A DNA stretch of 47,772 bases from a virus (taxonomy: Duplodnaviria > Heunggongvirae > Uroviricota > Caudoviricetes): IMG/VR virus record IMGVR_UViG_2698536610_000001, one strand, 5' to 3'. Both the position numbers and the translations under genes were made by a program. Under the pieces are notes generated by a model. It saw nothing but the letters and a program-made list of their open reading frames with translations. It made no database searches and was not told where the DNA came from. Below are positions 1 through 44,174 of this stretch, one piece after another (position 1 is the stretch's first letter; each line of letters begins with the position of its first letter).

Positions 1-1
1 A

Positions 2-1297
2 TTAATTTTTCATTGCTTCGTTATGGGGCATGGTTGGGGCAAACTCGCTTAACTGTGTATTTAACAAAGCTACCTGTGCATTATTGTTTTCAGACATCCA
101 TTTTCCGTATACCTGAAATACCATTTGCGCATCTGCATGGCCCATCTGGTTTGCTATAAATGCTGGGTTAGCACCAGCTGTCAGCGACCAGCAGGCATAA
201 GTATGTCTCGACTGATATGATTTTCGATGGCGGAGTCCGGCACGTTTTATCGCTGCGTCCCACATCTGCCTTATTGAGTCAACGGTAAAATGGTCACCAT
301 AATTTTTTACTCTCGCTGACACTTCAGGTTGAAAAACAAAGGTGCATTTATGTTTTTCTGTTCTGCCATACTCTCTGAGGTGAACATCAATGATATGCTC
401 TTTGCTCAGTCTCGTTAATGTCATCTGACTCCGGAGAGCGTCGATTGCTGGCTTAATAAGATGAATGACCCGATTGGTTCCCGCCTGTGTTTTTGGTACC
501 GTGAAACGGTCTTTTGCTAAATTTCTCCTGATCATCATTGTTCCATTTTTCAGATCTATGTCCTCCCATCCAAGTGCACACAGCTCACCAGGGCGAACGC
601 CAGTATAAACAGAAACACACCATAAATTTTTGGCTTGCTGATTTCTGCACGCATCGATAAGACGGATGAATTCCTCCCGCGAAAGAGGATCCGGAATGGT
701 TCTTGATTCCTTTAATGGCGAGATCCCCTTAAACGGGTTATCTGCCAGGTAACCGTTATCAACACCAAACTGGAACACGGCGTTAAGATTTGTCATGTAA
801 TTATTTACAGTTACAGCCGATCTCCCTGGTTGTGTAACAATATAGTTACTTTTGGGGATCTGGTATCCAGTCAGTAGCTCTTTACGAACCTCCAGTAATT
901 TTTCTTTATTAATCGATGAGGCAAGATTTTTTTCACCGATTATGCTCAGGATATTTTTGATGACGGCACGGTATGTGTTGAGTGATGTTTTTGCGACTTC
1001 AGTTTCTTTCAGTGCCAGAAATTTTTCAGCCAGTTCTTTTATGGTTAAATCTTGTCGGGCCTCACCAAATTTTTCCAGATTGCGTGAGGAGGGAAACTGT
1101 TTTGCATAGTCGAAAACACCAGTTTTTATTGCGTAACAAACAGAGGCGCGTAGCTCACCTGCAACGCGCCTGTTTTTTGCTGTGTCAGGAACCCCCAGGT
1201 TTTCCCTGACTCTTACGCCTTTATAAACAAACCAGATACGTAATTTCCCTCCATGGTTTTCCACGCCTGTCGGATATTTCATTTCAACTTCTCTCAT
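2..1297 (-). CDS. int: Phage tyrosine integrase (site-specific recombinase), Rac/Qin-type
   Basis: 431-aa ORF; C-terminal catalytic region with the R...H..R...Y pattern (…HRKSYQSRHTYACWSL…GHADAQMVFQVYG); N-terminus resembles lambdoid prophage integrases; sits at the prophage edge next to an excisionase-like gene. Confidence 0.9.
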   Translation of the reverse strand: MREVEMKYPTGVENHGGKLRIWFVYKGVRVRENLGVPDTAKNRRVAGELRASVCYAIKTGVFDYAKQFPSSRNLEKFGEARQDLTIKELAEKFLALKETEVAKTSLNTYRAVIKNILSIIGEKNLASSINKEKLLEVRKELLTGYQIPKSNYIVTQPGRSAVTVNNYMTNLNAVFQFGVDNGYLADNPFKGISPLKESRTIPDPLSREEFIRLIDACRNQQAKNLWCVSVYTGVRPGELCALGWEDIDLKNGTMMIRRNLAKDRFTVPKTQAGTNRVIHLIKPAIDALRSQMTLTRLSKEHIIDVHLREYGRTEKHKCTFVFQPEVSARVKNYGDHFTVDSIRQMWDAAIKRAGLRHRKSYQSRHTYACWSLTAGANPAFIANQMGHADAQMVFQVYGKWMSENNNAQVALLNTQLSEFAPTMPHNEAMKN

Positions 1298-1316
1298 TAG
1301 TTAGTGTGGCTTTTAG

Positions 1317-1568
1317 TCAAGTAAAATGACGTCTTGGTCTTGCTGATGCCTGGCGCTCAATCCAGCGATCAATTTCTTCCAGGTTGTAAAAGCATGGACT
1401 GTTATCCCATGGCATACCGTCATGAGCGACATGCTTATATTCCCTTCCTTCCATAAACGATTTTTCCCGGGCCTTTTTTAACGTACCTTTTTTTATTCCT
1501 TTCAGCGCAATTAACTGCTCTTCGGATACCCATTTGCCGGGAGAGACAATCATGATTACTTCGCTCAT
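1317..1568 (-). CDS. Excisionase-like protein (start codon uncertain)
   Basis: Small basic ORF immediately upstream of int on the same strand, the canonical xis position; identification is positional plus general family resemblance. Confidence 0.5.
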   Translation of the reverse strand: MSEVIMIVSPGKWVSEEQLIALKGIKKGTLKKAREKSFMEGREYKHVAHDGMPWDNSPCFYNLEEIDRWIERQASARPRRHFT

Positions 1569-1640
1569 CGATTTCTTTATCTCTTACATCAGACGAGCGC
1601 CGGTTGCAGAATACCAGTCACAACCGGCGACAGTTGAACA

Positions 1641-4112
1641 TTAAGAATCAGCCTGACTCGGGATCAGTTTTTGCCAGATAGCTGAAACGTATTTTGCCTG
1701 GTAACGGGCGTCATCAAGTGCATTATGGCGCTCACCTTCGAATGGAATAGCCGTTCTGGCATCGAAGTCTATGGCTTTCCCCAGCTCAACGATTGTGCGT
1801 ACATCGCGATCGTTGTAGTAACGCCACGGGCAGGGGATTCCCTGCCGTTCGTATGAACGGCGCAAAATCGTGTTGTCGAAGTTGGCTCCATTTCCCCAGA
1901 CATGAACAAAAAATTCACCGGAGTTTTCGTCGATAAATTCCCGCAATTGTAACAGTGCATCATCTAACGGGATTTCATCGGTCATAATGGCAGATTGCGC
2001 TTCGCGTGATTGTTTAAGCCACCATTTAATGGTGTCACGATCAATGACTCCGCCAGCAGTTTCCAGATCGATAGTCTTACTAAATTCCGGTCCCATATCT
2101 CCGGTTTGCGGATCGAAAAATATTGCACCTATTGAGATAATCGGGGCATCGGGATTTTTTCCCATGGTTTCAAGGTCGATCATCAGATGAATCCCCGCTC
2201 TGCTGGTGGATGTGAGATTATGATGACCGTTCGTCTTAATTAAGGGATCTGACGCCTCGCCAGTTTCACTATCGCTGGCATGATGCTGATTGCCGCCAGT
2301 GTTCTCCTTGTGCTGATGCGCAGTGCCTTCCATTTCCTCCGGATCATTTTCCTGAACTTCAGGCTGATTCTCTCCATCGAATATTTCCTGGTATGTTGCG
2401 TCACCCATCACCGCACCACAATCAGGGCAGTTGCCGCCACCGCTATGACCGCAGGCGGTGCAGATCTTTTCCGGTTCCTGTTGCACTACTGGTTCAGGTT
2501 GTTTCGTTTCTGGCTCGTTTTGTTGCGTATTTGGGCTGTTTTGTTCCGCTTTCTGGTCGTTCTGTTCCGTTTCTTGCTGGTTCTGGTTCACAGAATCGAG
2601 GGTCTGGATCCCCTTAACCCATTTCGGATCATTCGGGTCGCTAATCCCTTCAACAAATTCACCACGTGATACTGCAAGCAGTTCATCGGCGTCAGGCTGG
2701 CTGATATTGGCTGCCTGCATAATTTTGTTTACTTCGTCAGAGGTAACTTTTACTGACCCTGGTTGTGCGGTCGTGTCAGATGCACCAGTATTTTGTTGTG
2801 AACCTGAGTATGTACCGTTTTTGCGGGCGAAATATTCTTCTTTCGTGATTTCAGTAGCCCCAGCAGACAGCGCCTTATCCAGACCAGAAAGTTTGTTTGC
2901 GCGACCGTATTTTTCGCCATCCTTGTCGGTGAAGAGGAAGTAGAACGGCCCCTCACGTTCTACAGATGGTTCGACTTCCACTTTGCATTCGGTTTTTTCG
3001 TTGTCTGGAATTGCCGTTTCCACTGCATCAGTTTCTGGTACTGGCGACGAGAGAGTATCAGTTGCGCTCTGATTTGTTCCTTCATCTTCAAACACGCCCT
3101 TTGTAGTCAGGTATTCAGTAATGTATTTGTTCAGTGCCACAGGGTCTTTGTGAATGTCGATCGGACGTTCACGGACAAGGCCAAAAATAGTCTGGCGGTC
3201 GTAGCGAAGGGCATCAGGCTGTTTGCGCATTGATGCCGAGATACGCTTCCAGTCTTCGCGGTCGTTGTCGATAACTTCTTTTTTTGCCCAGCGATGGATG
3301 CTGCCGTCAATGTTTCCGGCATCCACATCACCAGGCCAGAGAGCGTAGGCCAGTTCGTCATCCAGTGTTTTCCATGTCTGCTTGTATTCGCGATGAATGG
3401 CAGCAATGACCGGGTTGATTTTTCCTGTTGAATTTTCAGTGTGCTGTTGATTGGCTCTGGCGCGGGCGAGATCAACAACAGACGTGTATTTTCCGGCTTC
3501 CTTGCGTTCACCTTCGCGACGTTTTTTCCAGATGCGCATCTCTGCCTGAATTTCGGGCCATTTGGCACCAGGCTTACATTTATGCTTAACCCACCCGATG
3601 GCATGCAGCTTAAGCTCCGGATACATAGCGTTAACTTCTGGCATTTTCATCAACGCTTCAACGATATGGCCGTCGAATGTTGCCATGTCTTCCTGCAACA
3701 ATTCCTGTGCGCTAATCACCATATCAACAGTGATGTTTTCACATGTGTGGAACTTAACCATGACAGCGTTCTGTACTTCAGGGGCCAGCTTGTCAAAAGT
3801 GACGTTCATCGGATCGGATTCAGTCTCAACCGGAACAAAAGAAGCAGACGCCTCATCCCAGCGGTTTTCCTGCATATATTCAGCATCCCAGGAATCGAGG
3901 GCAGGGCGGGGTATACCGGGTTTATCCTCGCAAACAAGAAATTTATAAGCGCAGTCCTGAGCAGCCGGATAATGTTCCAGGAATTGCCAGTGAAATTTTG
4001 CTCGAGCACGGCGTTCGTCGCCAGCTTCAATGGCTGTGGCTACAGCCACAGCGCCTTCTTCCCTTGTTGCCAGTTCGTCAGGAATAGCGGCGCAAATAAA
4101 GACTTTACTCAT
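1641..4112 (-). CDS. Prophage exonuclease with C-terminal DnaQ-like DEDDh 3'-5' exonuclease domain and internal Cys4 zinc ribbon
   Basis: 823-aa ORF; C-terminal motifs MIDLETMG (Exo I), HVWGNGANFD (Exo II), HNALDDARYQ (Exo III); CTACGH…CPDCG zinc-ribbon motif; acidic low-complexity linker. Often annotated as exodeoxyribonuclease VIII in databases, but the domain seen here is DnaQ-like. Confidence 0.8.
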   Translation of the reverse strand: MSKVFICAAIPDELATREEGAVAVATAIEAGDERRARAKFHWQFLEHYPAAQDCAYKFLVCEDKPGIPRPALDSWDAEYMQENRWDEASASFVPVETESDPMNVTFDKLAPEVQNAVMVKFHTCENITVDMVISAQELLQEDMATFDGHIVEALMKMPEVNAMYPELKLHAIGWVKHKCKPGAKWPEIQAEMRIWKKRREGERKEAGKYTSVVDLARARANQQHTENSTGKINPVIAAIHREYKQTWKTLDDELAYALWPGDVDAGNIDGSIHRWAKKEVIDNDREDWKRISASMRKQPDALRYDRQTIFGLVRERPIDIHKDPVALNKYITEYLTTKGVFEDEGTNQSATDTLSSPVPETDAVETAIPDNEKTECKVEVEPSVEREGPFYFLFTDKDGEKYGRANKLSGLDKALSAGATEITKEEYFARKNGTYSGSQQNTGASDTTAQPGSVKVTSDEVNKIMQAANISQPDADELLAVSRGEFVEGISDPNDPKWVKGIQTLDSVNQNQQETEQNDQKAEQNSPNTQQNEPETKQPEPVVQQEPEKICTACGHSGGGNCPDCGAVMGDATYQEIFDGENQPEVQENDPEEMEGTAHQHKENTGGNQHHASDSETGEASDPLIKTNGHHNLTSTSRAGIHLMIDLETMGKNPDAPIISIGAIFFDPQTGDMGPEFSKTIDLETAGGVIDRDTIKWWLKQSREAQSAIMTDEIPLDDALLQLREFIDENSGEFFVHVWGNGANFDNTILRRSYERQGIPCPWRYYNDRDVRTIVELGKAIDFDARTAIPFEGERHNALDDARYQAKYVSAIWQKLIPSQADS

Positions 4113-4205
4113 TTTATTTTAACCTCATGACAGATTTAAGGATGAATAAATCCCTGCCATTGCTGGCATATAAGAATGAAACCGGATATTTATTACGGAA
4201 CTGTT

Positions 4206-4397
4206 TTAAAGACCTGCCGGGATTTCGATATTATCCTGGTGAATAACTTTATCGACCGGGTAACAGTTACCGGGAATTTTCTGTTCGGTTGCTGCAGTCA
4301 TACACTCCTGCATTGTCCTGTGAACACTGACTGCAATATCAACTGGCTCTCCGGAAACAAGAAAAACTGTCAGAACAAGCGCAAATGCTGAATTCAT
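4206..4397 (-). CDS. ydfD: YdfD-like small single-TM lysis protein
   Basis: 63-aa ORF MNSAFALVLTVFLVSGEPVDIAVSV… with N-terminal hydrophobic helix; matches remembered Qin YdfD; stop/start overlap with dicB; start set at the internal ATG of the 81-aa track ORF. Confidence 0.7.
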   Translation of the reverse strand: MNSAFALVLTVFLVSGEPVDIAVSVHRTMQECMTAATEQKIPGNCYPVDKVIHQDNIEIPAGL

Positions 4398-4582
4398 TGT
4401 GCACATCTTTTTGGCATCAGACGTAAACGAGCCAGCATTGAAACAATGCATATTTTATTTAATAGCTCCCGTTCTTGTTTTCTCTTGTTAATGGCATCTT
4501 CAGTAAATACTGGGTTACTGATAGTGACACCAATTTCAAAACAACCTTCAGACGTATTAACGTTTGGTAATAACGTTTTCAT
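4394..4582 (-). CDS. dicB: Cell division inhibitor DicB
   Basis: 62-aa ORF MKTLLPNVNTSEGCFEIGVTISNPVFTEDAINKRKQERELLNKICIVSMLARLRLMPK…; matches remembered DicB; GAGGA Shine-Dalgarno upstream; dicF immediately upstream on the same strand. Confidence 0.8.
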   Translation of the reverse strand: MKTLLPNVNTSEGCFEIGVTISNPVFTEDAINKRKQERELLNKICIVSMLARLRLMPKRCAQ

Positions 4583-4751
4583 TATCGCGTCCTCAACAAT
4601 GAATTTTGTGATGCGGTGCCTGGTGCCTCCAGGTGACGTTAACCAGTTAACAATTAACGCCGGATACAGAGAATCCACCCATAACACTGTTTTTGGTTTT
4701 AACTGTTCCGCGTGCGCTCAGCCGCATTCACCACATCACAAAATTCACTTT

Positions 4752-4809
4752 AAAAAGGGCGGCAGAGCAGTCACGGAGTAAAACTGATACCGCCAAACGT
4801 CACCAGAAA
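4752..4809 (-). ncRNA. dicF: DicF small RNA (ftsZ-targeting antisense sRNA) with 3' hairpin and U-tract
   Basis: Minus-strand sequence TTTCTGGTGACGTTTGGCGGTATCAGTTTTACTCCGTGACTGCTCTGCCGCCCTTTTT is readable directly; GGCGG…CTGCCGCC stem followed by a T-run; lies between ydfC and dicB as in Qin. Confidence 0.75.
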
Positions 4810-5121
4810 ATTGATAACAGAGGGCGTTGCAGCGGGGTTGTCACTTAAGCGTATGGTCAACCTGACAACCCGGTGTCCTCAACGGGGGAAGGAATAACCC
4901 CGCCATACTTACCGCCGCGCCATTTCGCGGATTGCCACAACCGGAAGCGCACGGTCGACGAAAATTTAACGACAGGCTATCTATGAACCAGCTACCTCGC
5001 CGTGCGCTTTCGCGTTATGGTCTGACTTTTCAGGGAAATATCCTTTCAGTAAACTGTCAGTGCTGGATGCTCACCCGTGTCCGGCACACGCACTCCACCT
5101 CACCCGTGGAGAACTCCTTTA

Positions 5122-5337
5122 TTACCAACCTGTAATCATTCTGGCAATGCTTAATGCTGCTGCTTTTTCCAGATTGGTGATATCCTGCTCCAGAGCGGAC
5201 AGATTTTCAGCCTGCTTAGCCCTGGCTTCATTGGCCCATTTCAGATCCTGCGCTGCATTAATTTTCTGGTGCATCCACTCATAAAGTTCATCATCGGTAT
5301 AGTCTGGCGCGATGATGACGGGTTCTCGTTTCTGCAT
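5122..5337 (-). CDS. ydfC: YdfC-like small protein (leftward early operon)
   Basis: 71-aa ORF with GAGGA SD; position between ydfB-like and dicF matches the Qin dicB operon; sequence consistent with remembered YdfC. Confidence 0.6.
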   Translation of the reverse strand: MQKREPVIIAPDYTDDELYEWMHQKINAAQDLKWANEARAKQAENLSALEQDITNLEKAAALSIARMITGW

Positions 5338-5366
5338 ACTGATTCCTCGCGGTGCTGTTTCGCTTA

Positions 5367-5495
5367 TCAGCCGTTAGATTTTGCCGAACTGGAAAGCGCC
5401 TGTTTAAATTCGTTGAAGCTGAGAGCTTCTTCGCCTTCGGCAAGACCTTCGAAGTATTCTTCGTAAGCCTTTTCCATGATTGTGTCGAAATCCAT
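5367..5495 (-). CDS. ydfB: YdfB-like 42-aa protein
   Basis: Hand-translated minus-strand ORF MDFDTIMEKAYEEYFEGLAEGEEALSFNEFKQALSSSAKSNG (below the track threshold); start is one base from the ydfA stop. Confidence 0.5.
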   Translation of the reverse strand: MDFDTIMEKAYEEYFEGLAEGEEALSFNEFKQALSSSAKSNG

Positions 5496-5496
5496 A

Positions 5497-5652
5497 TCAC
5501 TCACCTGAGTTTCTTTCCAGCCAGCGACGGGCACCATTTTCGGTTTTAAACGTTTTGCTTTTGGTATACGTCATCGCGGTGAACGTACCGTCCTGGTTGG
5601 GGAACACGCCACATACCAGAGATTCGCTGTTGCCAAGATCGATAGTATCCAT
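5497..5652 (-). CDS. ydfA: YdfA-like 51-aa protein
   Basis: Internal start MDTIDLGNSESLVCGVFPNQDGTFTAMTYTKSKTF… of the 69-aa track ORF; first gene downstream of the leftward promoter/operator region. Confidence 0.55.
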   Translation of the reverse strand: MDTIDLGNSESLVCGVFPNQDGTFTAMTYTKSKTFKTENGARRWLERNSGE

Positions 5653-5729
5653 GCTGACCTCATTTCCCCTTAACGCTGGGGTAGCGGAACTGTTTGCTGA
5701 GAACACCGTGCGGTGTGTTGATGCAAATA

Positions 5730-5758
5730 AGATTAGCTATGACTAACATATAGGTCAA
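5730..5758 (-). promoter_or_regulatory. Putative leftward early promoter (dicB-operon promoter analogue): -35 TTGACC, 17-bp spacer, -10 TAATCT
   Basis: Read on the minus strand; the spacer and -10 overlap the TTAGCTATGACTAA operator-like palindrome at 5733-5746. Confidence 0.45.
5733..5746. promoter_or_regulatory. Operator-like site TTAGCTATGACTAA (TTAG-N6-CTAA)
   Basis: Near-palindrome of the same TTAG…CTAA family that recurs four times around dicA. Confidence 0.5.
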
Positions 5759-5769
5759 GTGATTTTGTA

Positions 5770-5783
5770 TGTTATGGCTAACA
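5770..5783. promoter_or_regulatory. Operator-like half-palindrome TGTTATGGCTAACA
   Basis: Related to the other TTAG-N6-CTAA sites; between dicA stop and ydfA. Confidence 0.35.
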
Positions 5784-5818
5784 TAATTGATGTGGTAAAA
5801 GATAACTCATTGATGATG

Positions 5819-6226
5819 TTATCTTTTATTTGTCCGCTGACGGGCTTTTAGTAATTCTTCAAAGAGTTTATTGAAGTTTTTTACTCGAGCTCGCATTTCG
5901 GCGAGCTGGGTATCCTGTTCTGATTCTGGCAGTGCATTAAACAGCTCAAGGAGCTCTAGTTCTTTGGGGGATAAGGCAACTGGCTTCTCAACAGGTGGTG
6001 TTGGTTGCTTGTCTTCATCGCCAAATAGAATCCATGTTGGTGAGCATTGCAATACTTTGCTGAGGGCAAAAAGGTTCTTCCCTGTAGGTTCACTATCATC
6101 CCGTTCCCATTGTGATACAGACACATGGGAGATTTTCAGGGCTTTAGCAAGAGACCTTTGGGTGTGTTTGAGGTTTTTCCGACGATACCTAATGCGTTCG
6201 CCGATAGTTAAATTTTTTGTTTCCAT
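5819..6226 (-). CDS. dicA: DicA-type HTH (XRE family) repressor, CI-like immunity repressor
   Basis: 135-aa ORF METKNLTIGERIRYRRKNLKHTQRSLAKALKISHVSVSQWERDDSEPTGKNLF… matches remembered DicA; divergent from dicC; palindromic operators on both sides. Confidence 0.85.
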   Translation of the reverse strand: METKNLTIGERIRYRRKNLKHTQRSLAKALKISHVSVSQWERDDSEPTGKNLFALSKVLQCSPTWILFGDEDKQPTPPVEKPVALSPKELELLELFNALPESEQDTQLAEMRARVKNFNKLFEELLKARQRTNKR

Positions 6227-6228
6227 AG

Positions 6229-6242
6229 TTAGCTAATGCTAA
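6229..6242. promoter_or_regulatory. Operator-like palindrome TTAGCTAATGCTAA
   Basis: TTAG-N6-CTAA inverted repeat 3 bp beyond the dicA start codon, in the dicA-dicC intergenic region. Confidence 0.5.
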
Positions 6243-6248
6243 ATCGTA

Positions 6249-6277
6249 TTGACTATGTTTTTGTTAACATCTATTTT
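6249..6277 (+). promoter_or_regulatory. Putative rightward early promoter for dicC: -35 TTGACT, 17-bp spacer, -10 TATTTT
   Basis: Consensus -35 hexamer; the -10 region is overlapped by the 40-bp perfect palindrome. Confidence 0.45.
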
Positions 6278-6305
6278 GTTAGTCATGACTAACAAAATAG
6301 ATGTT
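6266..6305. promoter_or_regulatory. 40-bp perfect palindrome AACATCTATTTTGTTAGTCA|TGACTAACAAAATAGATGTT with core TTAGTCATGACTAA; putative main operator
   Basis: Read directly; the first 20 nt are the exact reverse complement of the second 20 nt; ends 4 bp before the dicC ATG. Confidence 0.6.
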
Positions 6306-6309
6306 TTAA

Positions 6310-6540
6310 ATGCTTAAAACTGACGCTCTTTTGTATTTCGGTTCAAAAACAAAACTTGCACAAGCAGCAGGTATTCGTTTGGCTTCGCTTTATAGCTGGA
6401 AAGGGGATTTAGTTCCCGAAGGTCGCGCGGTGCGTCTACAGGAGGCATCTGGCGGGGAGCTTCAGTATGATCCCAAAGTTTATGATGAATATCGTAAGAC
6501 GAAGCGGGCGGGGCGGTTGAACAATGAAAATCACTCCTGA
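6310..6540 (+). CDS. dicC: DicC-type Cro-like regulator
   Basis: 76-aa ORF MLKTDALLYFGSKTKLAQAAGIRLASLYSWKGDLVPEGRAVRLQEASGGELQYDPKVYDEYRK… matches remembered DicC; first gene of the rightward operon. Confidence 0.8.
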   Translation: MLKTDALLYFGSKTKLAQAAGIRLASLYSWKGDLVPEGRAVRLQEASGGELQYDPKVYDEYRKTKRAGRLNNENHS

Positions 6541-7045
6541 ACAGGCTCGTGAGGCTCTGGATGCCTGGATATGTCGACCAGGAATGACACAGGAGCAGGC
6601 GACGATATTAATCACTGAAGCATTTTGGTCTTTGAAAGAGCGCCCGAACATCGATGTTCAGCGTGTCACAGATGAAGGTGGCGCGGTTGATCAGCGAGCG
6701 CTTGGCGTTAATCGAGTGAAGATATTCGAACGCTGGAAGGCTATTGACACCAGGGATAAGCGTGAAAAGTTCACGGCGCTAGTGCCTGCAATTATGGAGG
6801 CTATCCGGATTAGTGATTTCAGGTTGTATCGTGAAATTAGTGACGGGAAAAGCATTACGTACATGATCGCCGGGTTAAACAAAGAATATGGCGATGTGGT
6901 GGAGTCCGGACTGCTTTTTGCTGATCCTGCCGTAGTGGATCGTGAAACTGACGAACTTATAGAAAAAGCAATTGCTTTCAAACTTGCGTATCGACAGCAA
7001 TACCAACAAAAAGCTGGATGGAATTATGAGCCTTCTTTTTGCTGA
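6524..7045 (+). CDS. Conserved phage early protein in the cII position (possibly YdaT-family)
   Basis: 173-aa ORF overlapping the dicC 3' end by 17 nt; family assignment is tentative and from memory. Confidence 0.45.
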   Translation: MKITPEQAREALDAWICRPGMTQEQATILITEAFWSLKERPNIDVQRVTDEGGAVDQRALGVNRVKIFERWKAIDTRDKREKFTALVPAIMEAIRISDFRLYREISDGKSITYMIAGLNKEYGDVVESGLLFADPAVVDRETDELIEKAIAFKLAYRQQYQQKAGWNYEPSFC

Positions 7046-8463: not shown

Positions 8464-8786
8464 AGAGCATTAGTTCAGATGTGAATTGACATTTTCGTGG
8501 CACAAGATTAGCGCTAGCGTGGTCGTTTGGTTTGTGCCAAGAGCGGATAATGCTGACATTCCTATGCACTAATTAACGCAGAGCAAGCCAGTTAGTTGGT
8601 TATGGAAGTAAGTTGTAGCCAGCAACTATCACCATCGGAGATATTTAGGGGGATGCACTCTAAGTTGTAGTTACTTTATAATGTCACTTTCAAAGCGGAA
8701 GCTTGTACAAAAGATGGATAAGCTTTTGTATAGTATGGGATTCAAGAATCACTAAAAGATGACAACAGTACTTACAGGATGTGGCT

Positions 8787-9026
8787 ATGATCCGAATTAT
8801 GATTAGAATATTTTCTTTGACATTCGTTGCTTGCGCTGGCTTTGCTGCATATCACTTCAATAGTGTGCCATTGATGTTCACTTCTGGTAGCTTTCTTGTA
8901 ACATTTTTAGGTACATTTATTGTTAATAAAAAAAGTTCAGGGCATACAATAATTCAAAAAAGCGGTAGCCATTCAAAAAATAATCAGACGGTCGTTTTTG
9001 GAAATAATGAAAACAAGCGAGGCTGA
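8787..9026 (+). CDS. Small membrane protein with two predicted TM helices (cassette gene A)
   Basis: ATG 8787 with AGGA upstream; hydrophobic stretches IFSLTFVACAGFAAY and FTSGSFLVTFLGTFIV; stop 2 nt before gene B; AT-rich. Confidence 0.5.
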   Translation: MIRIMIRIFSLTFVACAGFAAYHFNSVPLMFTSGSFLVTFLGTFIVNKKSSGHTIIQKSGSHSKNNQTVVFGNNENKRG

Positions 9027-9028
9027 TC

Positions 9029-9625
9029 ATGGTTGGTGTTACTCAAAGGTCAGGGAATTACTCACGTAATGTGCAGGTGGTTGTCGATTCTAACTCTGTT
9101 GATATTATAAAGTCTCCATCGATTTTTATGGATCTTGTTGGTATTTTAGTTGATTCGAATGTTATTGATCCTCGTACAAACAATGACTACGAGCCATATG
9201 ATATTGAGAATAAAATAGACTTCAATGATGTTATAAAACATAGAGAACGTATTGAAGGGTTCTATCTATATTCTTCGATGATAGATAAAGCGTATGAAAC
9301 ATTAAATGAAAGTATGCCTACTGCTAAGGAAACGGCACTGAAAAGCATCAATTCACGATATCTTGATTGTCAAGGAGATTTATTGCTTAAACATAGAGAA
9401 GCGTATAAGAGCTGCAAGGATGCTCAGGAACGGAATAATTTAAAGATTCAATTGGTAAGAGAGTTTGCAGATTGGATAATAGACAGTGTAATAGAGCACA
9501 TCATTAAGAAATGCTTAAATTCTCTTATGGCAATGAATTACACAAGCGAAGAAATCGAATGCCATGCTTCTTTTATCGTTTATCATGCATTCGTAGAGTG
9601 TAAGATTCTGGAAAAACCAATATGA
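9029..9625 (+). CDS. Hypothetical 198-aa protein (cassette gene B)
   Basis: Tightly coupled to A upstream and C downstream (ATGA overlap); no motif recognised. Confidence 0.55.
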   Translation: MVGVTQRSGNYSRNVQVVVDSNSVDIIKSPSIFMDLVGILVDSNVIDPRTNNDYEPYDIENKIDFNDVIKHRERIEGFYLYSSMIDKAYETLNESMPTAKETALKSINSRYLDCQGDLLLKHREAYKSCKDAQERNNLKIQLVREFADWIIDSVIEHIIKKCLNSLMAMNYTSEEIECHASFIVYHAFVECKILEKPI

Positions 9626-9858
9626 TTATCTCTGATGTAACAAAACCAAGCCAAACCTTGTATTACCTGGGGGCTCGGTTATTAGAATGCATGAGTTCAA
9701 ATGCTTATTCGTATGTTGATATTATAGACTTGTATAATGAATTCAAATCTAAAAATAACAACTCTTCATTCACGCAATATATTTACACTTTAAATTGGCT
9801 ATATTTATTAGGCCTGGTTGATGCTAACGAAAATGGAGATTTGATATTATGTTTTTGA
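9622..9858 (+). CDS. Hypothetical 78-aa protein (cassette gene C)
   Basis: Overlaps B by 4 nt and D by 10 nt; small, probably helical. Confidence 0.5.
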   Translation: MIISDVTKPSQTLYYLGARLLECMSSNAYSYVDIIDLYNEFKSKNNNSSFTQYIYTLNWLYLLGLVDANENGDLILCF

Positions 9859-11573
9859 AACGGCTAATAGTCAGTTCTTTCAGGCTTGGAGTGATTCGTG
9901 ATATCGAATTTCACATTGGCGTTAATTTGATTATTGACCGAAACACCTCCAGCAAAGAGCAAACTGGAAATGGTGTGGGAAAAACTACTGTATTAAGAGC
10001 TTTAGATTTTTGTTTTGGAGCAGAACAACTGAATTTTTATACCGATCCTGAATTCAAGAAAGAAAATTCGGTTATAAAAAATTATTTGATAGAGAACGAG
10101 ATTGAGTTTTGTTTAATTCTCACAAAAGATTTGAATAATAAAACTGCACCAGTAATAAAAATTAAGCGTAAAATTACATCTGAGACTAATAAAACGAAGG
10201 TTATAGCCTCAATAAATGAAGAGTCCTATACGAAGGCTAAAGATTTCAACGAGGCTTTAAAAAGAACATTATATCTTGATTCCGCGATAAAACCGACCAT
10301 ACGAGAGATTATGGGACGTGTTATTCGAAATACGCATGACAAGATGTCGAACGCATTAAAAACGATAAAAATGGGTTCTAATACACAATATGAAACGTTA
10401 AATCTGTTTATGTTTGGGTTCGGTAACTCACAGATTCTGGATGAAAAACAGTCAGTGACTAAAGCCTATAAACTGGCGAAATCCGATTATGAAGTAATTA
10501 CTCGCCATCGCTCAAAGAATGCTTTGGAACAAGCTATTGCAATTATAAATAGAGATATTATAGCACAAGAAGAGTTAATTTCTAATTTTCAAGTGGCAGA
10601 CTCTTATAATGATATGCTTGCTGAGTTAAATGAGTTAAAAATTAAAATTAGTGAAGTTTCTATCATACTATCATCTTTGGAGTTTAAGCAAAAATTAAAC
10701 GATAAGGCTATACTAGATCTGGAAAAAAGTCATGAAAATATAAATACACTAGATCTACAGAAGTTGTACTTAGAAGCAACTGATCGGTTAGGTAACTTAA
10801 ACAAAGAGTTTACTGAGCTACTTTCGTTTCATAATAAAATGCTTGTAAAAAAAGCTGAGTTTATTAGAAAACAAATGCAGCCAGTGCTGCAAGAAATTTC
10901 CAAATATAAAGATGAACTAAATAACTTATTGACTCAAGAATCAGAGCTTTTAAAGAGTTTGTCTTCGCATGGGACATTGGCAGACCTGCAAATAATGCAA
11001 AAAAAATTAAATTCATTATTTGAAGAAAAAGGTGGGCTTGAAGCTGGACTACTTCAAATCCAAGAGATGGAGAACAACTTTAATATACTGAAAGCAAAGT
11101 TTAATGATGTGTCAGATAGATTAAAATCTAAACTTGACGATTTTAACAAACGTCTTGCGCTATTCAATTCCTATTTTTCTTTATATACTAAAAAATTATA
11201 TCAGGATGAATATATTCTTTCCTATAAAGATTCCTCCGGTTCTTTCGTTTTTACCATTGAACCTTTAGGAACTTTGCTCACATCAGGTAATCAGGGAGAA
11301 GGAAAAAAGAAAGCCCAGGTTGCCTCTTTAGATTTTGCCTATTTATCTGTCCAGGAGTCTTTAGAAGCCAGAACACCACGTTTTATAGCTCATGATGGAA
11401 TTGAGGCAATTCATGTAAATCAAATAAATAAGTTATTCGAGATAGCTTCGGGGATTAATGGTCAATATATATTGGCTATTCTTAAAGACAAGTTGGAGAA
11501 TATTGATCAAGACTTCATCAATAATAGTGTTGTGCTTGAGCTTGGGGAGGACGATAAGTTTTTTAGGCTTTAA
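9849..11573 (+). CDS. ABC-type P-loop ATPase with long central coiled coil (SMC/Rad50-like architecture) (cassette gene D)
   Basis: Walker A GNGVGKTT at aa 40-47 (nt 9966-9989); heptad-rich helical region roughly aa 220-440; C-terminal signature-like TSGNQGEG, Walker-B-like RFIAHD and a following His. Confidence 0.7.
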   Translation: MFLKRLIVSSFRLGVIRDIEFHIGVNLIIDRNTSSKEQTGNGVGKTTVLRALDFCFGAEQLNFYTDPEFKKENSVIKNYLIENEIEFCLILTKDLNNKTAPVIKIKRKITSETNKTKVIASINEESYTKAKDFNEALKRTLYLDSAIKPTIREIMGRVIRNTHDKMSNALKTIKMGSNTQYETLNLFMFGFGNSQILDEKQSVTKAYKLAKSDYEVITRHRSKNALEQAIAIINRDIIAQEELISNFQVADSYNDMLAELNELKIKISEVSIILSSLEFKQKLNDKAILDLEKSHENINTLDLQKLYLEATDRLGNLNKEFTELLSFHNKMLVKKAEFIRKQMQPVLQEISKYKDELNNLLTQESELLKSLSSHGTLADLQIMQKKLNSLFEEKGGLEAGLLQIQEMENNFNILKAKFNDVSDRLKSKLDDFNKRLALFNSYFSLYTKKLYQDEYILSYKDSSGSFVFTIEPLGTLLTSGNQGEGKKKAQVASLDFAYLSVQESLEARTPRFIAHDGIEAIHVNQINKLFEIASGINGQYILAILKDKLENIDQDFINNSVVLELGEDDKFFRL

Positions 11574-11859
11574 GATTTGTAATTTGATAGATATGTAGAT
11601 ATCATTTTTCTCGCTCAAAACTGACAGTCAGATTTGAGCGAATTGCTTATGTAAGTATTTCGCAGAATCATGCCATTTATATTTATTAGAACATACGTAC
11701 TTTAAATGTGGGAGGCTGTCATGTTGGTTCTTAAATGTTCGCTGACTATTGCGGTGGTGCGGGCAATTTATTGTTCTGTTATTCTTATGGATCGCCTTTC
11801 TGACTGATTTCATATTGGCGAGATAACGGGAGTTAAGTAGAATGCCTGCGGGTGCTTGA

Positions 11860-12018
11860 GGCTATCTGCCTCGGGCATGAATACCAACGGCAGATAGAGA
11901 AAAGCCCCAGTTAACATTACGCGTCCTGCAAGACGCTTAACATTAATCTGAGGCCAATTTCATGCTAGACACATGTAGGTTAGCCTCTTACGTGCCGAAA
12001 GGCAAGGAGAAGCAGGCT
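11860..12018. promoter_or_regulatory. hok/mok mRNA leader; expected location of antisense Sok RNA (not mapped)
   Basis: Inferred from hok/sok locus organisation; mok ORF begins at 11962. Confidence 0.35.
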
Positions 12019-12174
12019 ATGAAGCAGCAAAAGGCGATGTTAATCGCCCTGATCGTCATCTGTTTAACCGTCATAGTGACGGCACTGGTAACGAGGAAAG
12101 ACCTTTGCGAGGTACGAATCCGAACCGGCCAGACGGAGGTCGCTGTCTTCACAGCTTACGAACCTGAGGAGTAA
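12019..12174 (+). CDS. hok: Hok/Gef family type I toxin (mok in-frame extension from 11962)
   Basis: MKQQKAMLIALIVICLTVIVTALVTRKDLCEVRIRTGQTEVAVFTAYEPEE; the 70-aa upstream extension MLDTCRLASYVPKGKEKQA… resembles Mok; GGCGAGGGA-GAAA-TCCCTCGCC stem-loop at 12182-12203. Confidence 0.8.
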   Translation: MKQQKAMLIALIVICLTVIVTALVTRKDLCEVRIRTGQTEVAVFTAYEPEE

Positions 12175-12390: not shown

Positions 12391-12654
12391 ATGATGAACA
12401 TGATGATGAACATCGAAGAACTGCGTAAAAATTTTTGTGAAGATGGCCTCTATGCTGTGTGCGTTGAAAATGGAAATCTTGTTAGTCATTACCGCATTAT
12501 GTGTTTGCGAAAGAATGGGGCTGCGTTAATTAATTTTGTGGATGGTCGAGTGACAGACGGATTTATCTTGCGCGAAGGTGAGTTTGTCACTTCATTACAG
12601 GCACTGAAAGAGATCGGAATAAAAGCTGGCTTTTCTGCTTTTTCAGGAGAATAA
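12391..12654 (+). CDS. Hypothetical phage protein (87 aa)
   Basis: GGAAGGA Shine-Dalgarno; unusual MMNMMMN start; no motif recognised. Confidence 0.45.
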   Translation: MMNMMMNIEELRKNFCEDGLYAVCVENGNLVSHYRIMCLRKNGAALINFVDGRVTDGFILREGEFVTSLQALKEIGIKAGFSAFSGE

Positions 12655-14050: not shown

Positions 14051-14067
14051 TTTTGTGGAGTAAGTTG

Positions 14068-14445
14068 ATGCGTGATATTCAGATGGTTCTTGAGCGTTGG
14101 GGGGCATGGGCGGCTAATAATCATGAAGATGTGACCTGGTCGTCCATTGCCGCCGGTTTTAAGGGATTAATTCCTTCAAAAGTAAGATCTCGTCCGCAAT
14201 GCTGTGACGATGACGCGATGATCATTTGTGAATGTATGGCTCGCCTGAAAAAAAACAACAGCGATTTACATGATTTATTGGTGGACTATTATGTCGGCGG
14301 CATGACTTTTATGGCGCTTGCACGTAAGCATGGGCGATCTGATTGTTGGGTTGGCAGGATGCTCCAGAAAGCTGAGGGCGTAGTGGAGGGCATGCTGATG
14401 GTGTTGGATCTCCGATTGGAGATGGATGCTGATTGTTCGAAATAA
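14068..14445 (+). CDS. Late-gene antiterminator Q (small QuuD/phage-82-type)
   Basis: [26 protein letters not shown]…; about 125 aa; followed by a strong intrinsic terminator (tR' analogue). Confidence 0.65.
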
Positions 14446-14600: not shown

Positions 14601-15125
14601 TTATTGTTTAACCCATAATAGTTCATTGACATTGAATCCCAACTTTTGAGCGGTACGCACATAGTCTGCTTTTACATTATCTGGAATAGTTTGGGTCCTT
14701 GCCAGAATCCATAGGTATTCTCTGTTCGGACCACTGACAAGAGCATACTTATACTCATCATCCAGTTTGATTACATTATAGCCACCATAGAAGGGGCCAA
14801 AAAACGAAACTTTCAACGCTGCAGTTTTAGTATCTCCAGTAAAGTATGCTTTACCTTCGCTCTCGCTCCATTTGTTTTTCGTTGGATCGTATCCACGGTT
14901 AAGTACGCGAATCCCTCCGTCGTTCCGTTTTTCATAAGTAGCGCTGACCTGTTCCAGACCACGTTCGAACCAGTTCTCGAGGCGAGCTATTTCATACCAT
15001 TTTCCGAGGTAGCGGTTGGCGTCAAAATTTGTAATCGGCTGCACACCTTTAGGTGGTGTCGGGGCCTTACATGCTATAAGAGTGAAAGAGAGTGCAATGC
15101 CAGTCAACACAGGCCATAACTTCAT
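14601..15125 (-). CDS. Bacterial lipocalin (Blc-like outer-membrane lipoprotein), prophage cargo
   Basis: 174-aa ORF; signal peptide with lipobox LIAC; lipocalin motifs …RYLGKWYEIARLENWFERGLE… and KVSFFGPFYGGYNVI match remembered Blc closely. Confidence 0.85.
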   Translation of the reverse strand: MKLWPVLTGIALSFTLIACKAPTPPKGVQPITNFDANRYLGKWYEIARLENWFERGLEQVSATYEKRNDGGIRVLNRGYDPTKNKWSESEGKAYFTGDTKTAALKVSFFGPFYGGYNVIKLDDEYKYALVSGPNREYLWILARTQTIPDNVKADYVRTAQKLGFNVNELLWVKQ

Positions 15126-15317: not shown

Positions 15318-16277
15318 ATGATAAAAAAACCTGTGATTGGGATCAGCGGTTGTTTGGGCGGTTCTGCTGTTCGTTTTGATGGTGGTCACAAAAGAGATGA
15401 CTTTTTAATGGACAAATTAGTGGAATGGGTAACATTCAGACCAGTATGTCCGGAAATGGCTATAGGGCTGCCAGTTCCGCGTCCTGCTCTACGACTTGTG
15501 CGCTCGAAGCAAGGAAATATACGGATGTGTTTCAGTCACGACCAGAATGAGGATGTGACAGAGAGAATGACAGAGTTTAGTCGTTCTTATATGGACAAAT
15601 TAAAGGATGTATCGGGGTTTGTGGTTTGTGCTAAATCTCCCAGCTGTGGCATGGAGCGCGTGCGTGTCTATGATGAAAATGGTAATCGAGGTCGTAAAGA
15701 TGGAGTGGGACTATTTACGAGCACTTTGATGGAAAAGTTTTCCTGGCTACCGGTTGAAGAGGATGGGCGATTACATGATCCAGTGCTTCGTGAGAATTTT
15801 ATTGAAAGAGTTTTTGCTTTGCATGAGCTCAATCACCTTTACAAGGAGAAATTATCAAGAAGAGAGTTATTAGCTTTTCATAGTCGTTATAAGCTTCAGT
15901 TGTTGGCGCATAGCCAGGCAGGCTATAAAGATATGGGACCATTTGTGGCTGCAATACACGAGTGGGCGGACCTTGAATCATACTTTGAGGTGTATCGTGA
16001 TAATCTGATGGCGATTCTCAGAAAACCAGCATCACGTAAAAATCACACGAATGTGCTGATGCATATACAGGGGTATTTTAGTAATTACTTAAGTACACGC
16101 CAGCGTAAAGAGTTGAGCGAGGTTATACTTAACTATCGTTCTGGCACATTGCCTCTTCTTGCGCCGTTGACTCTGCTGAAGCATTATCTGGGTGAGTATC
16201 CTAATGATTACTTGCTTACACAGAATTACTTCGATCCCTATCCGGAAGAACTGGCTTTAAGGCTGATGGTGAATTAA
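15318..16277 (+). CDS. DUF523/DUF1722 (YbbK/YbgA-like) fusion protein, prophage cargo
   Basis: 319-aa ORF; N-terminal VIGISGCLGG…CPE and C-terminal helical domain resemble the YbgA-type family; assignment from memory. Confidence 0.55.
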   Translation: MIKKPVIGISGCLGGSAVRFDGGHKRDDFLMDKLVEWVTFRPVCPEMAIGLPVPRPALRLVRSKQGNIRMCFSHDQNEDVTERMTEFSRSYMDKLKDVSGFVVCAKSPSCGMERVRVYDENGNRGRKDGVGLFTSTLMEKFSWLPVEEDGRLHDPVLRENFIERVFALHELNHLYKEKLSRRELLAFHSRYKLQLLAHSQAGYKDMGPFVAAIHEWADLESYFEVYRDNLMAILRKPASRKNHTNVLMHIQGYFSNYLSTRQRKELSEVILNYRSGTLPLLAPLTLLKHYLGEYPNDYLLTQNYFDPYPEELALRLMVN

Positions 16278-16756
16278 CTGTATGCGATATCATCTGAAAG
16301 TGATGAGTTCCTGCATGCAGGATATTTACAATCGTAAAAACTACACTATGATACCCATAGTGTCAGTTTGTATAAAAATCCTGTTCACGCTGAAGAAAAT
16401 ATTGAGATGCAATTTAATGTTGGTAAATATACCAGCCCCAAAATATTTTATTCAATCTGTTTTTATATAAAGATATTTCAAGTGAATATTAAGAGCATAT
16501 AATATTATTATTGCACGCAGCTATTATAATATAACAGATTAGTTTAATGATTTTTTGCGAGTTAAACACATGCTTTTATAGTTGTGATGCAATGAGATTT
16601 TCCTTATTGTTGAACTGGCGAATATTGATTATCCACCTATACTTACCTGGTGTAACCCCAATGATATCAGGTGGATAATATGCCATACATATGTTCTATG
16701 GTGATGCCTCTAATTAGTTGAATCTGATGTATAATACGGGCTTTTGAGGTTATCTC

Positions 16757-17029
16757 ATGGCCAGAGTTAATATTCATTGTCCCCGTTGTCAGTCAGCTCA
16801 GGTTTACCGCCATGGTCAGAACCCTAAAGGCCGTGACAGATTTCGCTGCCGTGACTGCCACCGTGTGTTTCAGCTCACTTATACTTATCAAGCACGTAAG
16901 CCGGGTATGAAAGAGCTGATAACTGAAATGGCCTTTAATGGTGCCGGGGTTCGCGATACCGCCAGGACAATGAAAATTGGTATTAACACCGTCATCCGGA
17001 CTTTAAAAAACTCGCGCCAAAGCGAATAA
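16757..17029 (+). CDS. insA: IS1 InsA (transposition regulator / N-terminal part of InsAB')
   Basis: MARVNIHCPRCQSAQVYRHGQNPKGRDRFRCRDCHRVFQLTYTYQ… with zinc-finger and HTH as in IS1 InsA. Confidence 0.85.
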   Translation: MARVNIHCPRCQSAQVYRHGQNPKGRDRFRCRDCHRVFQLTYTYQARKPGMKELITEMAFNGAGVRDTARTMKIGINTVIRTLKNSRQSE

Positions 17030-17451
17030 CTTCTTCGCCTGTTGCCCATGCTGATGTGGCGCTTATCTGCGAGCTTGATGAGCAATAGAGCTACGTTGGC
17101 AGTAAAGCCCGGCAACACTGGCTCTGGTACGCGTACAACACCAAAACAGGCGGTGTACTGGCCTACACTTTTGGTCCCCGAACCGATCAAACGTGCCGGG
17201 AGCTACTGGCACTGCTTACACCCTTCAACATCGGCATGCTGACCAGCGATGACTGGGGCAGCTATGGCCGGGAGGTGCCGAAGAATAAGCATCTGACCGG
17301 CAAAATATTCACCCAACGCATTGAGCGTAATAATCTGACGCTACGCACCCGCATTAAGCGGTTGGCTCGTAAAATAATCTGCTTCTCACGCTCAGTTGAG
17401 ATCCACGAAAAAGTGATCGGAGCGTTTATCGAAAAACACATGTTCTACTAA
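17030..17451 (+). pseudogene. insB: IS1 insB frame interrupted by an in-frame amber codon
   Basis: The InsB frame (-1 relative to insA) reads …ALICELDEQ*SYVGSKARQHWLWYAYN…; TAG at 17086-17088 replaces the Trp of the remembered DEQWGYVG motif; the distal part (17236-17451) is intact. Confidence 0.55.
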
Positions 17452-17470
17452 TTGGATGCACTACCATCAC

Positions 17471-18053: not shown

Positions 18054-18269
18054 ATGAAATCCATGGACAAGTTAACAACGGGCATTGCCTACGGCACCTC
18101 CGCAGGCAGTGCTGGCTACTGGTTTTTACAGTGGCTTGATCAGGTCAGTCCATCACAGTGGGCTGCTATTGGTGTGCTGGGAAGTCTGGTTCTGGGCTTT
18201 CTGACTTACCTGACGAATCTGTACTTCAAAATAAGAGAAGACAAGCGTAAAGCTGCGCGGGGAGAGTAA
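18054..18269 (+). CDS. Class II holin (phage 21 S-type pinholin) with dual-start motif
   Basis: [71 protein letters not shown]; two TM segments; GGAGGTGAG Shine-Dalgarno; Met1/Met4 starts. Confidence 0.85.
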
Positions 18270-20205: not shown

Positions 20206-20898
20206 TCAAATCTTATCTAACTCATTATAGGCTTCGATAATAAAAATTCTGATTTTAATAAGGCATGATTCAATGAAAGGAATTACTTCATGGTCATTCC
20301 CATGGAATCTTATTTTTTTCTCTTCGGTAATGACTATGTTTAAAGGTACACCATTACCACTTCTTTGTAATTTCCCATTTTCGAAAGTAAAGTCTTCTAA
20401 TTTTTTGCCATTGATGTGGTTGTTTTTAAAGAGAATTTTTGCTGAGCTTCCTGCTGTGATTAAACCAAAACCATCTACGCTCACACTTAGGTCTTTAACA
20501 GAACTCTCTTCTCTTAAGGGGATTGGTTGTCTGTGCTTTACTTCATTAGTGAGATTACACATCATTTCCAACCAAGATTCGCCAGTGTGATAATCCTGTA
20601 TAGAAGTAAAAATTTTATATAATGGAGAAGATGATGGTGGGTTTATTTTTAGCGTCTTTGAGAAAAATTTATCAATAAACTCTTTTTTTCCGTAAGGGAA
20701 ATATATTTTGGGGCGCTCATCATTACTGCGTGGAGAAATATATTTATCATAGGTATCATTAGCGAGATACTCTAAGGAACTTCGTAAGTTTTCCAAAATA
20801 GCTTTGACTTTTACAGGCTTGATATGCTGTGTCTGTCTCATTATGTCAAGACTTTCTTCAACTTCTTGCAATAAGTCTAACGAGCCTTCTCTAGACAT
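20206..20898 (-). CDS. Hypothetical 230-aa protein in an AT-rich island (moron)
   Basis: Long ORF in strongly AT-rich DNA where chance ORFs are unlikely; opposite to phage late transcription, in the position lambda uses for bor; no motif recognised. Confidence 0.6.
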   Translation of the reverse strand: MSREGSLDLLQEVEESLDIMRQTQHIKPVKVKAILENLRSSLEYLANDTYDKYISPRSNDERPKIYFPYGKKEFIDKFFSKTLKINPPSSSPLYKIFTSIQDYHTGESWLEMMCNLTNEVKHRQPIPLREESSVKDLSVSVDGFGLITAGSSAKILFKNNHINGKKLEDFTFENGKLQRSGNGVPLNIVITEEKKIRFHGNDHEVIPFIESCLIKIRIFIIEAYNELDKI

Positions 20899-43600: not shown

Positions 43601-44174
43601 GTCAGGCGTGATCCCTGATATGCGTGGCTGGACGATTAAGGGCAAGCCCGCCAGTGGTCGTGCCGTATTGTCTCAGGAACAGGACGGCATTAAATCGCAC
43701 ACCCACAGCGCCAGCGTATCCAGTACGGATTTGGGTACGAAAACCACATCATCGTTTGATTACGGCACTAAATCCACGAATAACACTGGTGCGCATACTC
43801 ATAGTTTAAGTGGCAGCACGAATGCAGCTGGTAATCACAGCCATAGAGATGGCCGTCGATTTAACCCCAGTGTTTTTAAAGATACTTATCAATATGGTTA
43901 TACAAGCTCAGGTCAAAATACCTGGGGTGTACAAGGTTCAGTAGGTATGTCTACGGGGTGGTTAGCTAATACCAGTACAGATGGTAATCATAGCCACTCA
44001 CTGTCCGGCACAGCAGCATCTGCAGGTGCACACGCGCATACTGTCGGTATTGGTGCTCATACGCACTCCGTTGCGATTGGTTCACATGGACACACCATCA
44101 CCGTTAACGCTGCTGGTAATGCGGAAAACACCGTCAAAAACATCGCATTTAACTATATTGTGAGGCTTGCATAA
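40644..44174 (+). CDS. stf: Side tail fibre protein (Stf) with Ala/Ser-rich repeats and C-terminal His-rich repeats
   Basis: About 1176 aa; long (S/T)AxxAAxS repetitive region; C-terminal GAHTHS / GNHSHS / GSHGHT motifs. Confidence 0.85.

Follow-up and report, generated by a model that had tools for sequence, protein, structure and literature searches.

The dicF-dicB-ydfD module in a gene-complete Qin-type lambdoid prophage at the site of Escherichia coli K-12 Qin

The closest described counterpart of the locus analyzed here is the dicBF operon (b1570-b1576) of the Qin prophage in Escherichia coli K-12 MG1655. Qin is a 20-kb remnant without head, tail, or replication genes, in which ydfE and intQ have been cut by IS2 and persist as pseudogenes. 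The role of the dicBp promoter and the function of Rem as an antirepressor of DicA are established in K-12; DicA has no RecA-cleavage site, and mitomycin C fails to induce dicBp, which is derepressed spontaneously in a subpopulation of cells and induced by urea and heat (PMC10448788). Processing of the transcript by RNase III gives a 190-nt product and RNase E gives the 53-nt DicF small RNA, and published northern blots detected no transcript beyond ydfD (PMC10448788). The 5′ region of DicF pairs with xylR and the 3′ region with ftsZ, and pykA is also a target (PMC5069750). DicB blocks the Z-ring via MinC and ZipA, blocks ManYZ-dependent entry of phage DNA, and confers resistance to lambda (PMC6832061). 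YdfD binds IspG and causes lysis that is confined to dividing cells, and its effect is masked when DicB is co-expressed (PMC8835842).

The module is also carried by functional phages. The order int-xis-exo-ydfD-dicB-DicF found in the window (the whole 47,772-nt stretch of DNA analyzed) is shared by mEp460_ev081 (LR597641), Tritos (OV696610), PhiR42_1 (PV340562), and HannyBb (PP925841), and ydfA, ydfB, and ydfC are present also in Tritos and PhiR42_1. Carriage of dicB, dicF, dicAC, and rem by the functional phage mEp460_ev081 has been noted in print (Ragunathan et al. 2023). Lambda Kil and Rac KilR occupy the same slot as the module in the leftward early operon, with the immunity region on one side and exo/xis/int on the other, and they have the same outcome, a block of the FtsZ ring and filamentation on derepression (PMC3961180). 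Kil and KilR have no sequence relation to the module, and each is a single protein acting on FtsZ/ZipA; unlike them, the dicBF module combines a small RNA directed at ftsZ mRNA with a MinC-dependent protein and adds a lysis protein. In phage Evi, a Kil protein is annotated in the region matching the module.

A first-pass annotation, made from the sequence, had placed a complete dicF-dicB-ydfD module at 4206-4809 within a leftward early operon, with ydfA/B/C-like genes upstream and the exonuclease, xis, and int genes downstream, and this description held in each of its parts. The ydfD stop codon and the 5′ end of DicF are the exact limits of the interval, and all three components are near-exact relative to K-12 and have full-length Rfam or Pfam matches. 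The operon reads dicC, dicA, dicBp, ydfA, ydfB, ydfC, leader, DicF, dicB, ydfD, exonuclease, xis, int, with the genes from ydfA to int all on the minus strand (Table 1) and the module driven by the pL-like dicBp, downstream of dicA. K-12 Qin is matched gene for gene, with the same gene order and ~98% DNA identity over window positions 3346-6803. DicF is identical in the two, and DicB, YdfD, DicA, and DicC differ by one residue each. Structurally, the operon departs from that of K-12 only in that ydfC lacks 32 nt at its 3′ end, a deletion that alters the last residues of YdfC.

Table 1. Coordinates of the dicBF operon, its regulators, and the prophage features discussed in the text
Feature	Position	Strand	Description	Relation to known sequences
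int (tyrosine integrase)	2-1297	-		99.8% identical to mEp460_ev081 Int over 426 aa
xis (excisionase)	1317-1568	-		99% identical to mEp460_ev081 Xis
Exonuclease	1641-4112	-	823 aa; C-terminal Rv2179c-like 3′-5′ exonuclease domain	Pfam PF16473, 9.6e-67; PHROG 2082
ydfD	4206-4397	-	63 aa; lysis protein YdfD	V6A vs. K-12
dicB	4394-4582	-	62 aa; division inhibitor DicB	G59R vs. K-12
19-nt inverted repeat	4600-4618 / 4729-4747	-	Brackets the spacer from the DicF terminator to dicB; present in the minimum-free-energy fold	
DicF / dicF	4757-4809	-	53-nt sRNA with its own Rho-independent terminator hairpin; U-tract on to ~4752	Rfam RF00039
Untranslated leader, ydfC to DicF	4810-5121	-	312 nt; highly structured	
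ydfC	5122-5337	-	71 aa	C-terminus unlike K-12; PHROG 1744
ydfB	5367-5495	-	42 aa	41/42 identical to K-12; PHROG 2061
ydfA	5497-5652	-	51 aa; DUF1391	49/51 identical to K-12; PHROG 751
dicBp, pL-like promoter	5730-5758	-	TTGACC, 17 nt, TAATCT; overlaps DicA operator-like TGTTAGTCATAGCTAA	
dicA	5819-6226	-	135 aa; short repressor of dicBp	134/135 identical to K-12 (G43D)
dicC	6310-6540	+	Cro-like regulator, divergent from dicA	75/76 identical to K-12
rem	12403-12654	+	83 aa; antirepressor of DicA	81/83 identical to K-12 Rem
IS1-family element	~16700-17466		Between Q and the holin gene (late-operon leader); interrupts AraC-family cargo gene	
attR core TTATGGATTTC	46487-46497	.	11 bp; overlaps the ydfJ start codon (ATG)	

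The small RNA and its terminator hairpin, which had been described as readable directly from the letters, are indeed both present. A whole-window Rfam scan returned RF00039 at 4757-4808 on the minus strand with 76.7 bits (gathering threshold 48; E = 2.7e-15), covering model positions 1-52 of 52, and K-12 dicF (b1574) occurs as an exact string (53/53 nt) that takes in both the 5′ (xylR) and the 3′ (ftsZ, pykA) pairing regions. Folded alone by minimum free energy, DicF forms a terminator hairpin of 7 + 5 bp followed by UUUUU at -15.9 kcal/mol, with a z-score of -1.6 that is modest by itself. A promoter/terminator scan missed this terminator because the hairpin is bulged and has a 9-nt loop; it was located instead by alignment to K-12 and by folding. 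The same scan missed dicBp because its -10 hexamer is a weak match, and that promoter was likewise found by K-12 alignment. The remaining hits of the scan were at chance level and were disregarded. From its identity to K-12 DicF, the small RNA encoded here would be expected to pair with and repress the mRNA of ftsZ, a host gene that lies outside the window.

Both proteins of the module are intact. DicB matched Pfam PF05358 over positions 1-62 of 62 with 131.6 bits (threshold 27) and is identical to the K-12 protein at 61 of 62 residues; its sole difference, G59R, is an allele shared with strain GPEC657. YdfD matched Pfam DUF1482 (PF07358) with 92 bits (threshold 25) and is identical to K-12 YdfD at 62 of 63 residues and to YdfD of phage Tritos throughout, V6A included. 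Alignment of dicF, dicB, and ydfD to K-12, which had been put forward as the check on the assignment, thus gave near-identity and no substantial divergence of DicF or DicB. The overlap of stop and start codons between the two genes, also part of the original description, is read directly as ATGA at 4394-4397 and suggests translational coupling. A 97-aa open reading frame that contains dicB and begins with GTG at 4687 was considered as the product and rejected, given that the 62-aa form satisfies the Pfam model; the counterpart of the longer frame is annotated as a 94-aa DicB in mEp460_ev081. In K-12, the start of the DicB product is the in-phase internal ATG (Cam et al. 1988). By extension from K-12, DicB of the window (G59R) would block division through MinC and ZipA and inhibit ManYZ, and its YdfD (V6A) would bind IspG and cause division-dependent lysis. 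Searches with DicB and YdfD against PADLOC gave no hits, and neither protein is catalogued there as a defense protein; DicB is absent from that collection although its exclusion activity is published.

The RNA between ydfC and dicB is unusually structured. The 543 nt from the ydfC stop codon to the dicB start codon folded with a z-score of -4.0 relative to shuffled controls. Within the leader, a stem at 4942-4954 / 5000-5012 spans position ~4946, the likely RNase III-made 5′ end of the 190-nt DicF precursor; that position was placed by arithmetic, assuming a precursor with the same 3′ end as the terminator. The 19-nt inverted repeat forms a second extended RNA duplex, which lies close upstream of the ribosome-binding site (Shine-Dalgarno) of dicB and is a candidate RNase III substrate on read-through transcripts. 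Both the leader stem and the 19-nt duplex are kept in K-12, the latter with one G-C to G-U change. The RNA anatomy is consistent with the published pathway, in which transcripts either terminate at DicF or read through into dicB-ydfD and are processed by RNase III as well as RNase E.

The control region also follows K-12. Alignment of the dicA-ydfA intergenic region showed that both dicBp hexamers are identical to those of K-12, and the operator-like TGTTAG...CTAA repeats are largely conserved in both intergenic regions, with five substitutions relative to K-12 in the dicA-dicC region. The G43D substitution in DicA was examined as a possible repressor defect and rejected, as the allele is also found in GPEC657 and the viable mEp460_ev081 repressor has D at that position. 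The LexA box CTGT-N8-ACAG had no match in the whole window, so a Gifsy-type antirepressor under SOS/LexA control finds no sequence support here. The immunity region is of the K-12 type, unlike that of mEp460_ev081, whose repressor has another specificity (58% identity) and whose small genes upstream of the leader differ from those of the window. The other functional phages stand in a similarly mosaic relationship to the window. Tritos has the order int-xis-exo-ydfD-dicB-DicF-ydfCBA with DicF explicitly annotated, but it has a variant DicF and an unrelated CI/Cro pair; in PhiR42_1, DicA, DicB, and YdfD are identical to K-12.

The surrounding element was compared with K-12 Qin and with the functional phages. 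It is ~46.5 kb long and lies in the Qin site, rspB / ydfJ, as in K-12. At its left end the window aligns with the K-12 intQ remnant at 99% DNA identity, and at its right end with the ydfJ end of Qin; strains GPEC657 and WP2-W18-ESBL-08 carry closely related prophages inserted between rspB and ydfJ. In GPEC657 the 11-mer TTATGGATTTC occurs at each end of the prophage, the left copy lying ~48 nt to the left of the integrase gene, and mEp460_ev081 has it in its attP region; from the near-identical GPEC657 locus a matching attL core would be expected ~48 nt to the left of window position 1. The int gene corresponds to the pseudogene intQ of K-12 but is intact, its 426-aa form probably starting at 1282, and xis is annotated as an excisionase in GPEC657 and Tritos. 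The exonuclease gene is an undamaged version of what in K-12 is the pseudogene ydfE, and its protein is 98% identical to that of mEp460_ev081. Overall, mEp460_ev081 is 98.3% identical over window positions 1-5016 and ~96% identical over the structural genes.

The prophage had been judged to look intact, unlike the K-12 remnant, and at the level of gene content this was borne out by full-length matches to mEp460_ev081. Head, tail, and replication genes are missing from K-12 Qin, whereas the window has intact replication genes and a full late region. In tblastn searches with the mEp460_ev081 structural proteins, the large terminase, portal, protease/capsid, neck, tail tube, and G/T were full length in the window, as were the tape measure, M, L, K, I, J, Lom, side tail fiber, and Tfa. 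Identities were mostly 92-100%, with TerL, I, J, and Lom at 82-89%; the side tail fiber has a replaced central part and therefore matches as two segments. Full-length matches at 87-100% identity were also obtained for Int, Xis, the exonuclease, a YdaT-like protein, an O-like initiator, DUF977, Hok, Rem, DUF968, the holin, and lysozyme, and Q, the spanin, and the small terminase are other alleles than those of mEp460_ev081. The cos/terS/terL segment corresponds to the first 2817 nt of phage Tritos, at 99.3% identity. A cargo of Q-lipocalin-YbgA-AraC-holin is also found in isolated phages, e.g., IdasGreatGrand and Lambda_ev245. Relative to the functional phages that carry the module, the window has in addition an ABC-3C system and the IS1-family element. 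The whole accessory region is present without IS1 in seven complete E. coli genomes and with IS1 in none.

Collectively, these comparisons make it highly probable that the region is an orthodox dicBF operon in a gene-complete, Qin-type (mEp460-like) lambdoid prophage at the same site as K-12 Qin. In such an operon, DicA would hold dicBp off until repression was lifted by Rem or by the DicA/DicC switch flipping spontaneously; this step is drawn from the nearly identical DicA and Rem and the conserved promoter hexamers. The leftward transcript would then comprise ydfA, ydfB, ydfC, and the structured leader of ~310 nt, and part of it would end at the DicF terminator. RNase III would cut the leader stem and RNase E would subsequently trim the product to the 53-nt DicF, which with Hfq would pair through its 3′ part with ftsZ mRNA and through its 5′ part with xylR mRNA, pykA being a further target, so that division would be blocked and metabolism rewired. 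Read-through would yield DicB, predicted to recruit MinC to the septum via ZipA and to inhibit ManYZ, thereby excluding DNA entry of the lambda type. YdfD, made from the start codon that overlaps the dicB stop codon, would inhibit IspG; as YdfD lyses only dividing cells, its action would be masked by DicB. These later steps follow K-12 experiments, and the corresponding sequences are conserved in the window. The exonuclease, Xis, and Int genes come next, and continued transcription into them may be anticipated from the gene arrangement. On productive induction, the module would presumably act like lambda Kil in the pL operon, imposing an early division block and superinfection exclusion during phage excision and replication.

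Whether this element behaves as a virus is a separate matter from its gene content. Its immunity is of the K-12 type and its attachment site is that of Qin, which makes it effectively a Qin that has not decayed, and it is possible, if somewhat short of an even chance, that it is live and able to complete a lytic cycle. We give similarly tentative credence to the reading that the prophage only looks intact and is defective or locked, whether by the IS1-family element in the late leader, by an unrecognized point defect, or by a lost induction signal; the module would then behave just as it does in K-12 Qin, normally silent with sporadic or stress-related expression, in an element with no productive lytic cycle. 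The IS1-family element lies between Q and the holin gene, where it has disrupted the AraC-family gene, and it could be polar on the late operon, so a productive lytic cycle is not assured. The lack of a LexA box in the window and the unresponsiveness of K-12 dicBp to mitomycin C point in the same direction, and the near-identical GPEC657 prophage carries IS66 in its tape-measure gene, which indicates that such elements decay in place. Against a defective prophage, the structural, lysis, replication, and recombination genes are all either full length relative to a viable phage or replaced by equivalents, the cos/terminase segment is nearly identical to that of an isolated phage, and ~46.5 kb fits the 45.3-48.7 kb of related isolated phages. 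The gene interrupted by IS1 is only a cargo gene, and Q-modified RNA polymerase normally reads through inserted terminators.

A further reading concerns the role of the module and not the state of the prophage. The main selected role could lie in the lysogen instead of the lytic cycle, with low-level or bistable expression providing exclusion of ManYZ-dependent phages and stress-linked filamentation; we regard this as less likely than not. A role in protecting the host population would explain why the module is kept in decayed prophages, and the module is indeed present at ≥80% coverage in 2016 of 5426 complete genomes, decayed K-12 Qin included. A function in the lysogen would also fit the lambda resistance conferred by DicB (PMC6832061) and the findings that a subpopulation becomes derepressed spontaneously and that urea and heat act as inducers (PMC10448788). 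Set against this, the module occupies the pL-operon slot in which lambda and Rac carry kil and kilR, a position underlined by the Kil annotation in Evi, and viable phages retain it; moreover, a lysogen role does not exclude one in the lytic cycle, and nothing in the window separates the two. The remaining possibility, that DicF, DicB, and YdfD are matched here by chance or by a degraded pseudogene copy, is extremely improbable in view of the full-model Rfam match (E = 2.7e-15), the exact 53-nt dicF, two intact reading frames with one substitution each, unchanged promoter hexamers, and largely conserved operator-like repeats.

If the prophage were a live Qin, the K-12 dicF-dicB-ydfD alleles, which 35 years of study have treated as leftovers of a cryptic prophage, could be put to the test in the phage they come from. 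Candidate viral roles would be the timing of division arrest, ManYZ-based exclusion, and, for YdfD, an accessory lytic or metabolic function, and the natural signal that induces Rem could be sought. Both the contribution of the module to the phage life cycle and the trigger of Rem were posed as questions in PMC10448788, and the source strain would offer a convenient natural system for addressing them, with modest practical value. As a discovery, the assignment adds little: the literature and database annotations already cover DicF, DicB, and YdfD, how DicA and Rem regulate them, and how widely they occur in E. coli prophages. The module has already been sequenced, annotated, and discussed in print in functional phages, and the finding is correct but ordinary and already known.

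The distribution of the operon illustrates this familiarity. The 2016 genomes cited above were counted with the 1.8-kb operon region among complete E. coli genomes; partial matches to the operon occurred in 4764 of the 5426, with a median of two matching places per genome among those with any match. RefSeq names ydfA, ydfB, ydfC, dicB, and ydfD in matching E. coli genomes, PHROG families exist for DicB, YdfD, YdfA, YdfB, and YdfC, and the exact 53-nt DicF sequence is found in at least 119 IMG/VR viral contigs.

The dicBF transcript is predicted to contain two long RNA duplexes, at 4600-4747 and 4942-5012. We infer that RNase III cleaves within the latter to produce the 5' end of the 190-nt DicF precursor. 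The former, a 19-nt duplex, flanks the spacer running from the DicF terminator to dicB and lies immediately 5' of the dicB ribosome-binding site; its role in dicB expression is not addressed in the dicBF papers cited. Further upstream in the operon, the 3' end of ydfC (5122-5160) has 32 nt fewer than in K-12, which changes the C-terminus of YdfC from ...MITYPR to ...MITGW. Of the listed complete E. coli genomes that match best, the majority have the longer operon region seen in K-12; the deletion occurs in only a few of them, including strain GPEC657, whose Qin-site prophage is nearly identical.

Several accessory loci are distributed through the remainder of the prophage (see table). A variable slot bounded by the DUF977 gene and hokD is occupied by a candidate ABC-three-component (ABC-3C) defense system (8781-11573, plus strand). 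In its place, the GPEC657 prophage carries a DUF262 gene and the viable lambdoid phage mEp460_ev081 an unrelated gene. Beyond the slot is a hok/sok type I toxin-antitoxin locus (11850-12174), which is also present in the cryptic Qin prophage of K-12; the relBE genes adjoining it there are missing here.

Selected features of the window
Feature	Position	Strand	Remarks
81-aa ORF	8781-9026	+	Function unknown; ahead of candidate ABC-3C genes
CTD10-domain protein	9029-9625	+	Part of candidate ABC-3C system
MC6 middle component	9622-9858	+	Part of candidate ABC-3C system
DUF2326/ABC ATPase	9849-11573	+	Part of candidate ABC-3C system; PADLOC PDC-M68B, 2.8e-41
sok	11850-12024		Rfam match, 115 bits
hokD	12019-12174		51 aa
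Q antiterminator	14053-14445		
Lipocalin, Blc-like	14601-15125	-	Cargo between Q and lysis cassette
YbgA/2-thiouracil-desulfurase-like protein with DUF1722	15318-16277		Cargo between Q and lysis cassette
IS1-family element	16698-17467		Terminal inverted repeats 16698-16722/17443-17467
insA	16757-17029		In IS1-family element
Holin gene	18054-18269		
230-aa ORF	20206-20898	-	Opposite strand; spanin gene to cos/terS interval
Rfam "IS009" match	44517-44715		212 bits

The lipocalin and YbgA-like cargo is shared with isolated lambdoid phages, among them IdasGreatGrand and Lambda_ev245. Also between Q and the holin gene, an AraC-family cargo gene is interrupted by the IS1-family element, whose insB is apparently split into two ORFs; the uninterrupted gene, encoding 237 aa, is found in strain WP2-W18-ESBL-08, which has a closely related prophage. 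This insertion could exert a polar effect on late transcription. The 230-aa ORF gave no match in a Pfam comparison and a full-length match to PHROG 13652 (unknown function); it is conserved in GPEC657 and may be a moron. The "IS009" match falls wholly within the tail-fiber-assembly gene (44174-44755) and most likely reflects conserved tfa coding sequence, not a separate RNA gene.

The attachment core, TTATGGATTTC, occurs at 46487-46497 and at 1273-1283 of a second locus, L001. Because this core overlaps the start codon of ydfJ, the ydfJ frame begins inside it at the prophage boundary; in GPEC657, ydfJ is called N-terminally truncated by RefSeq.
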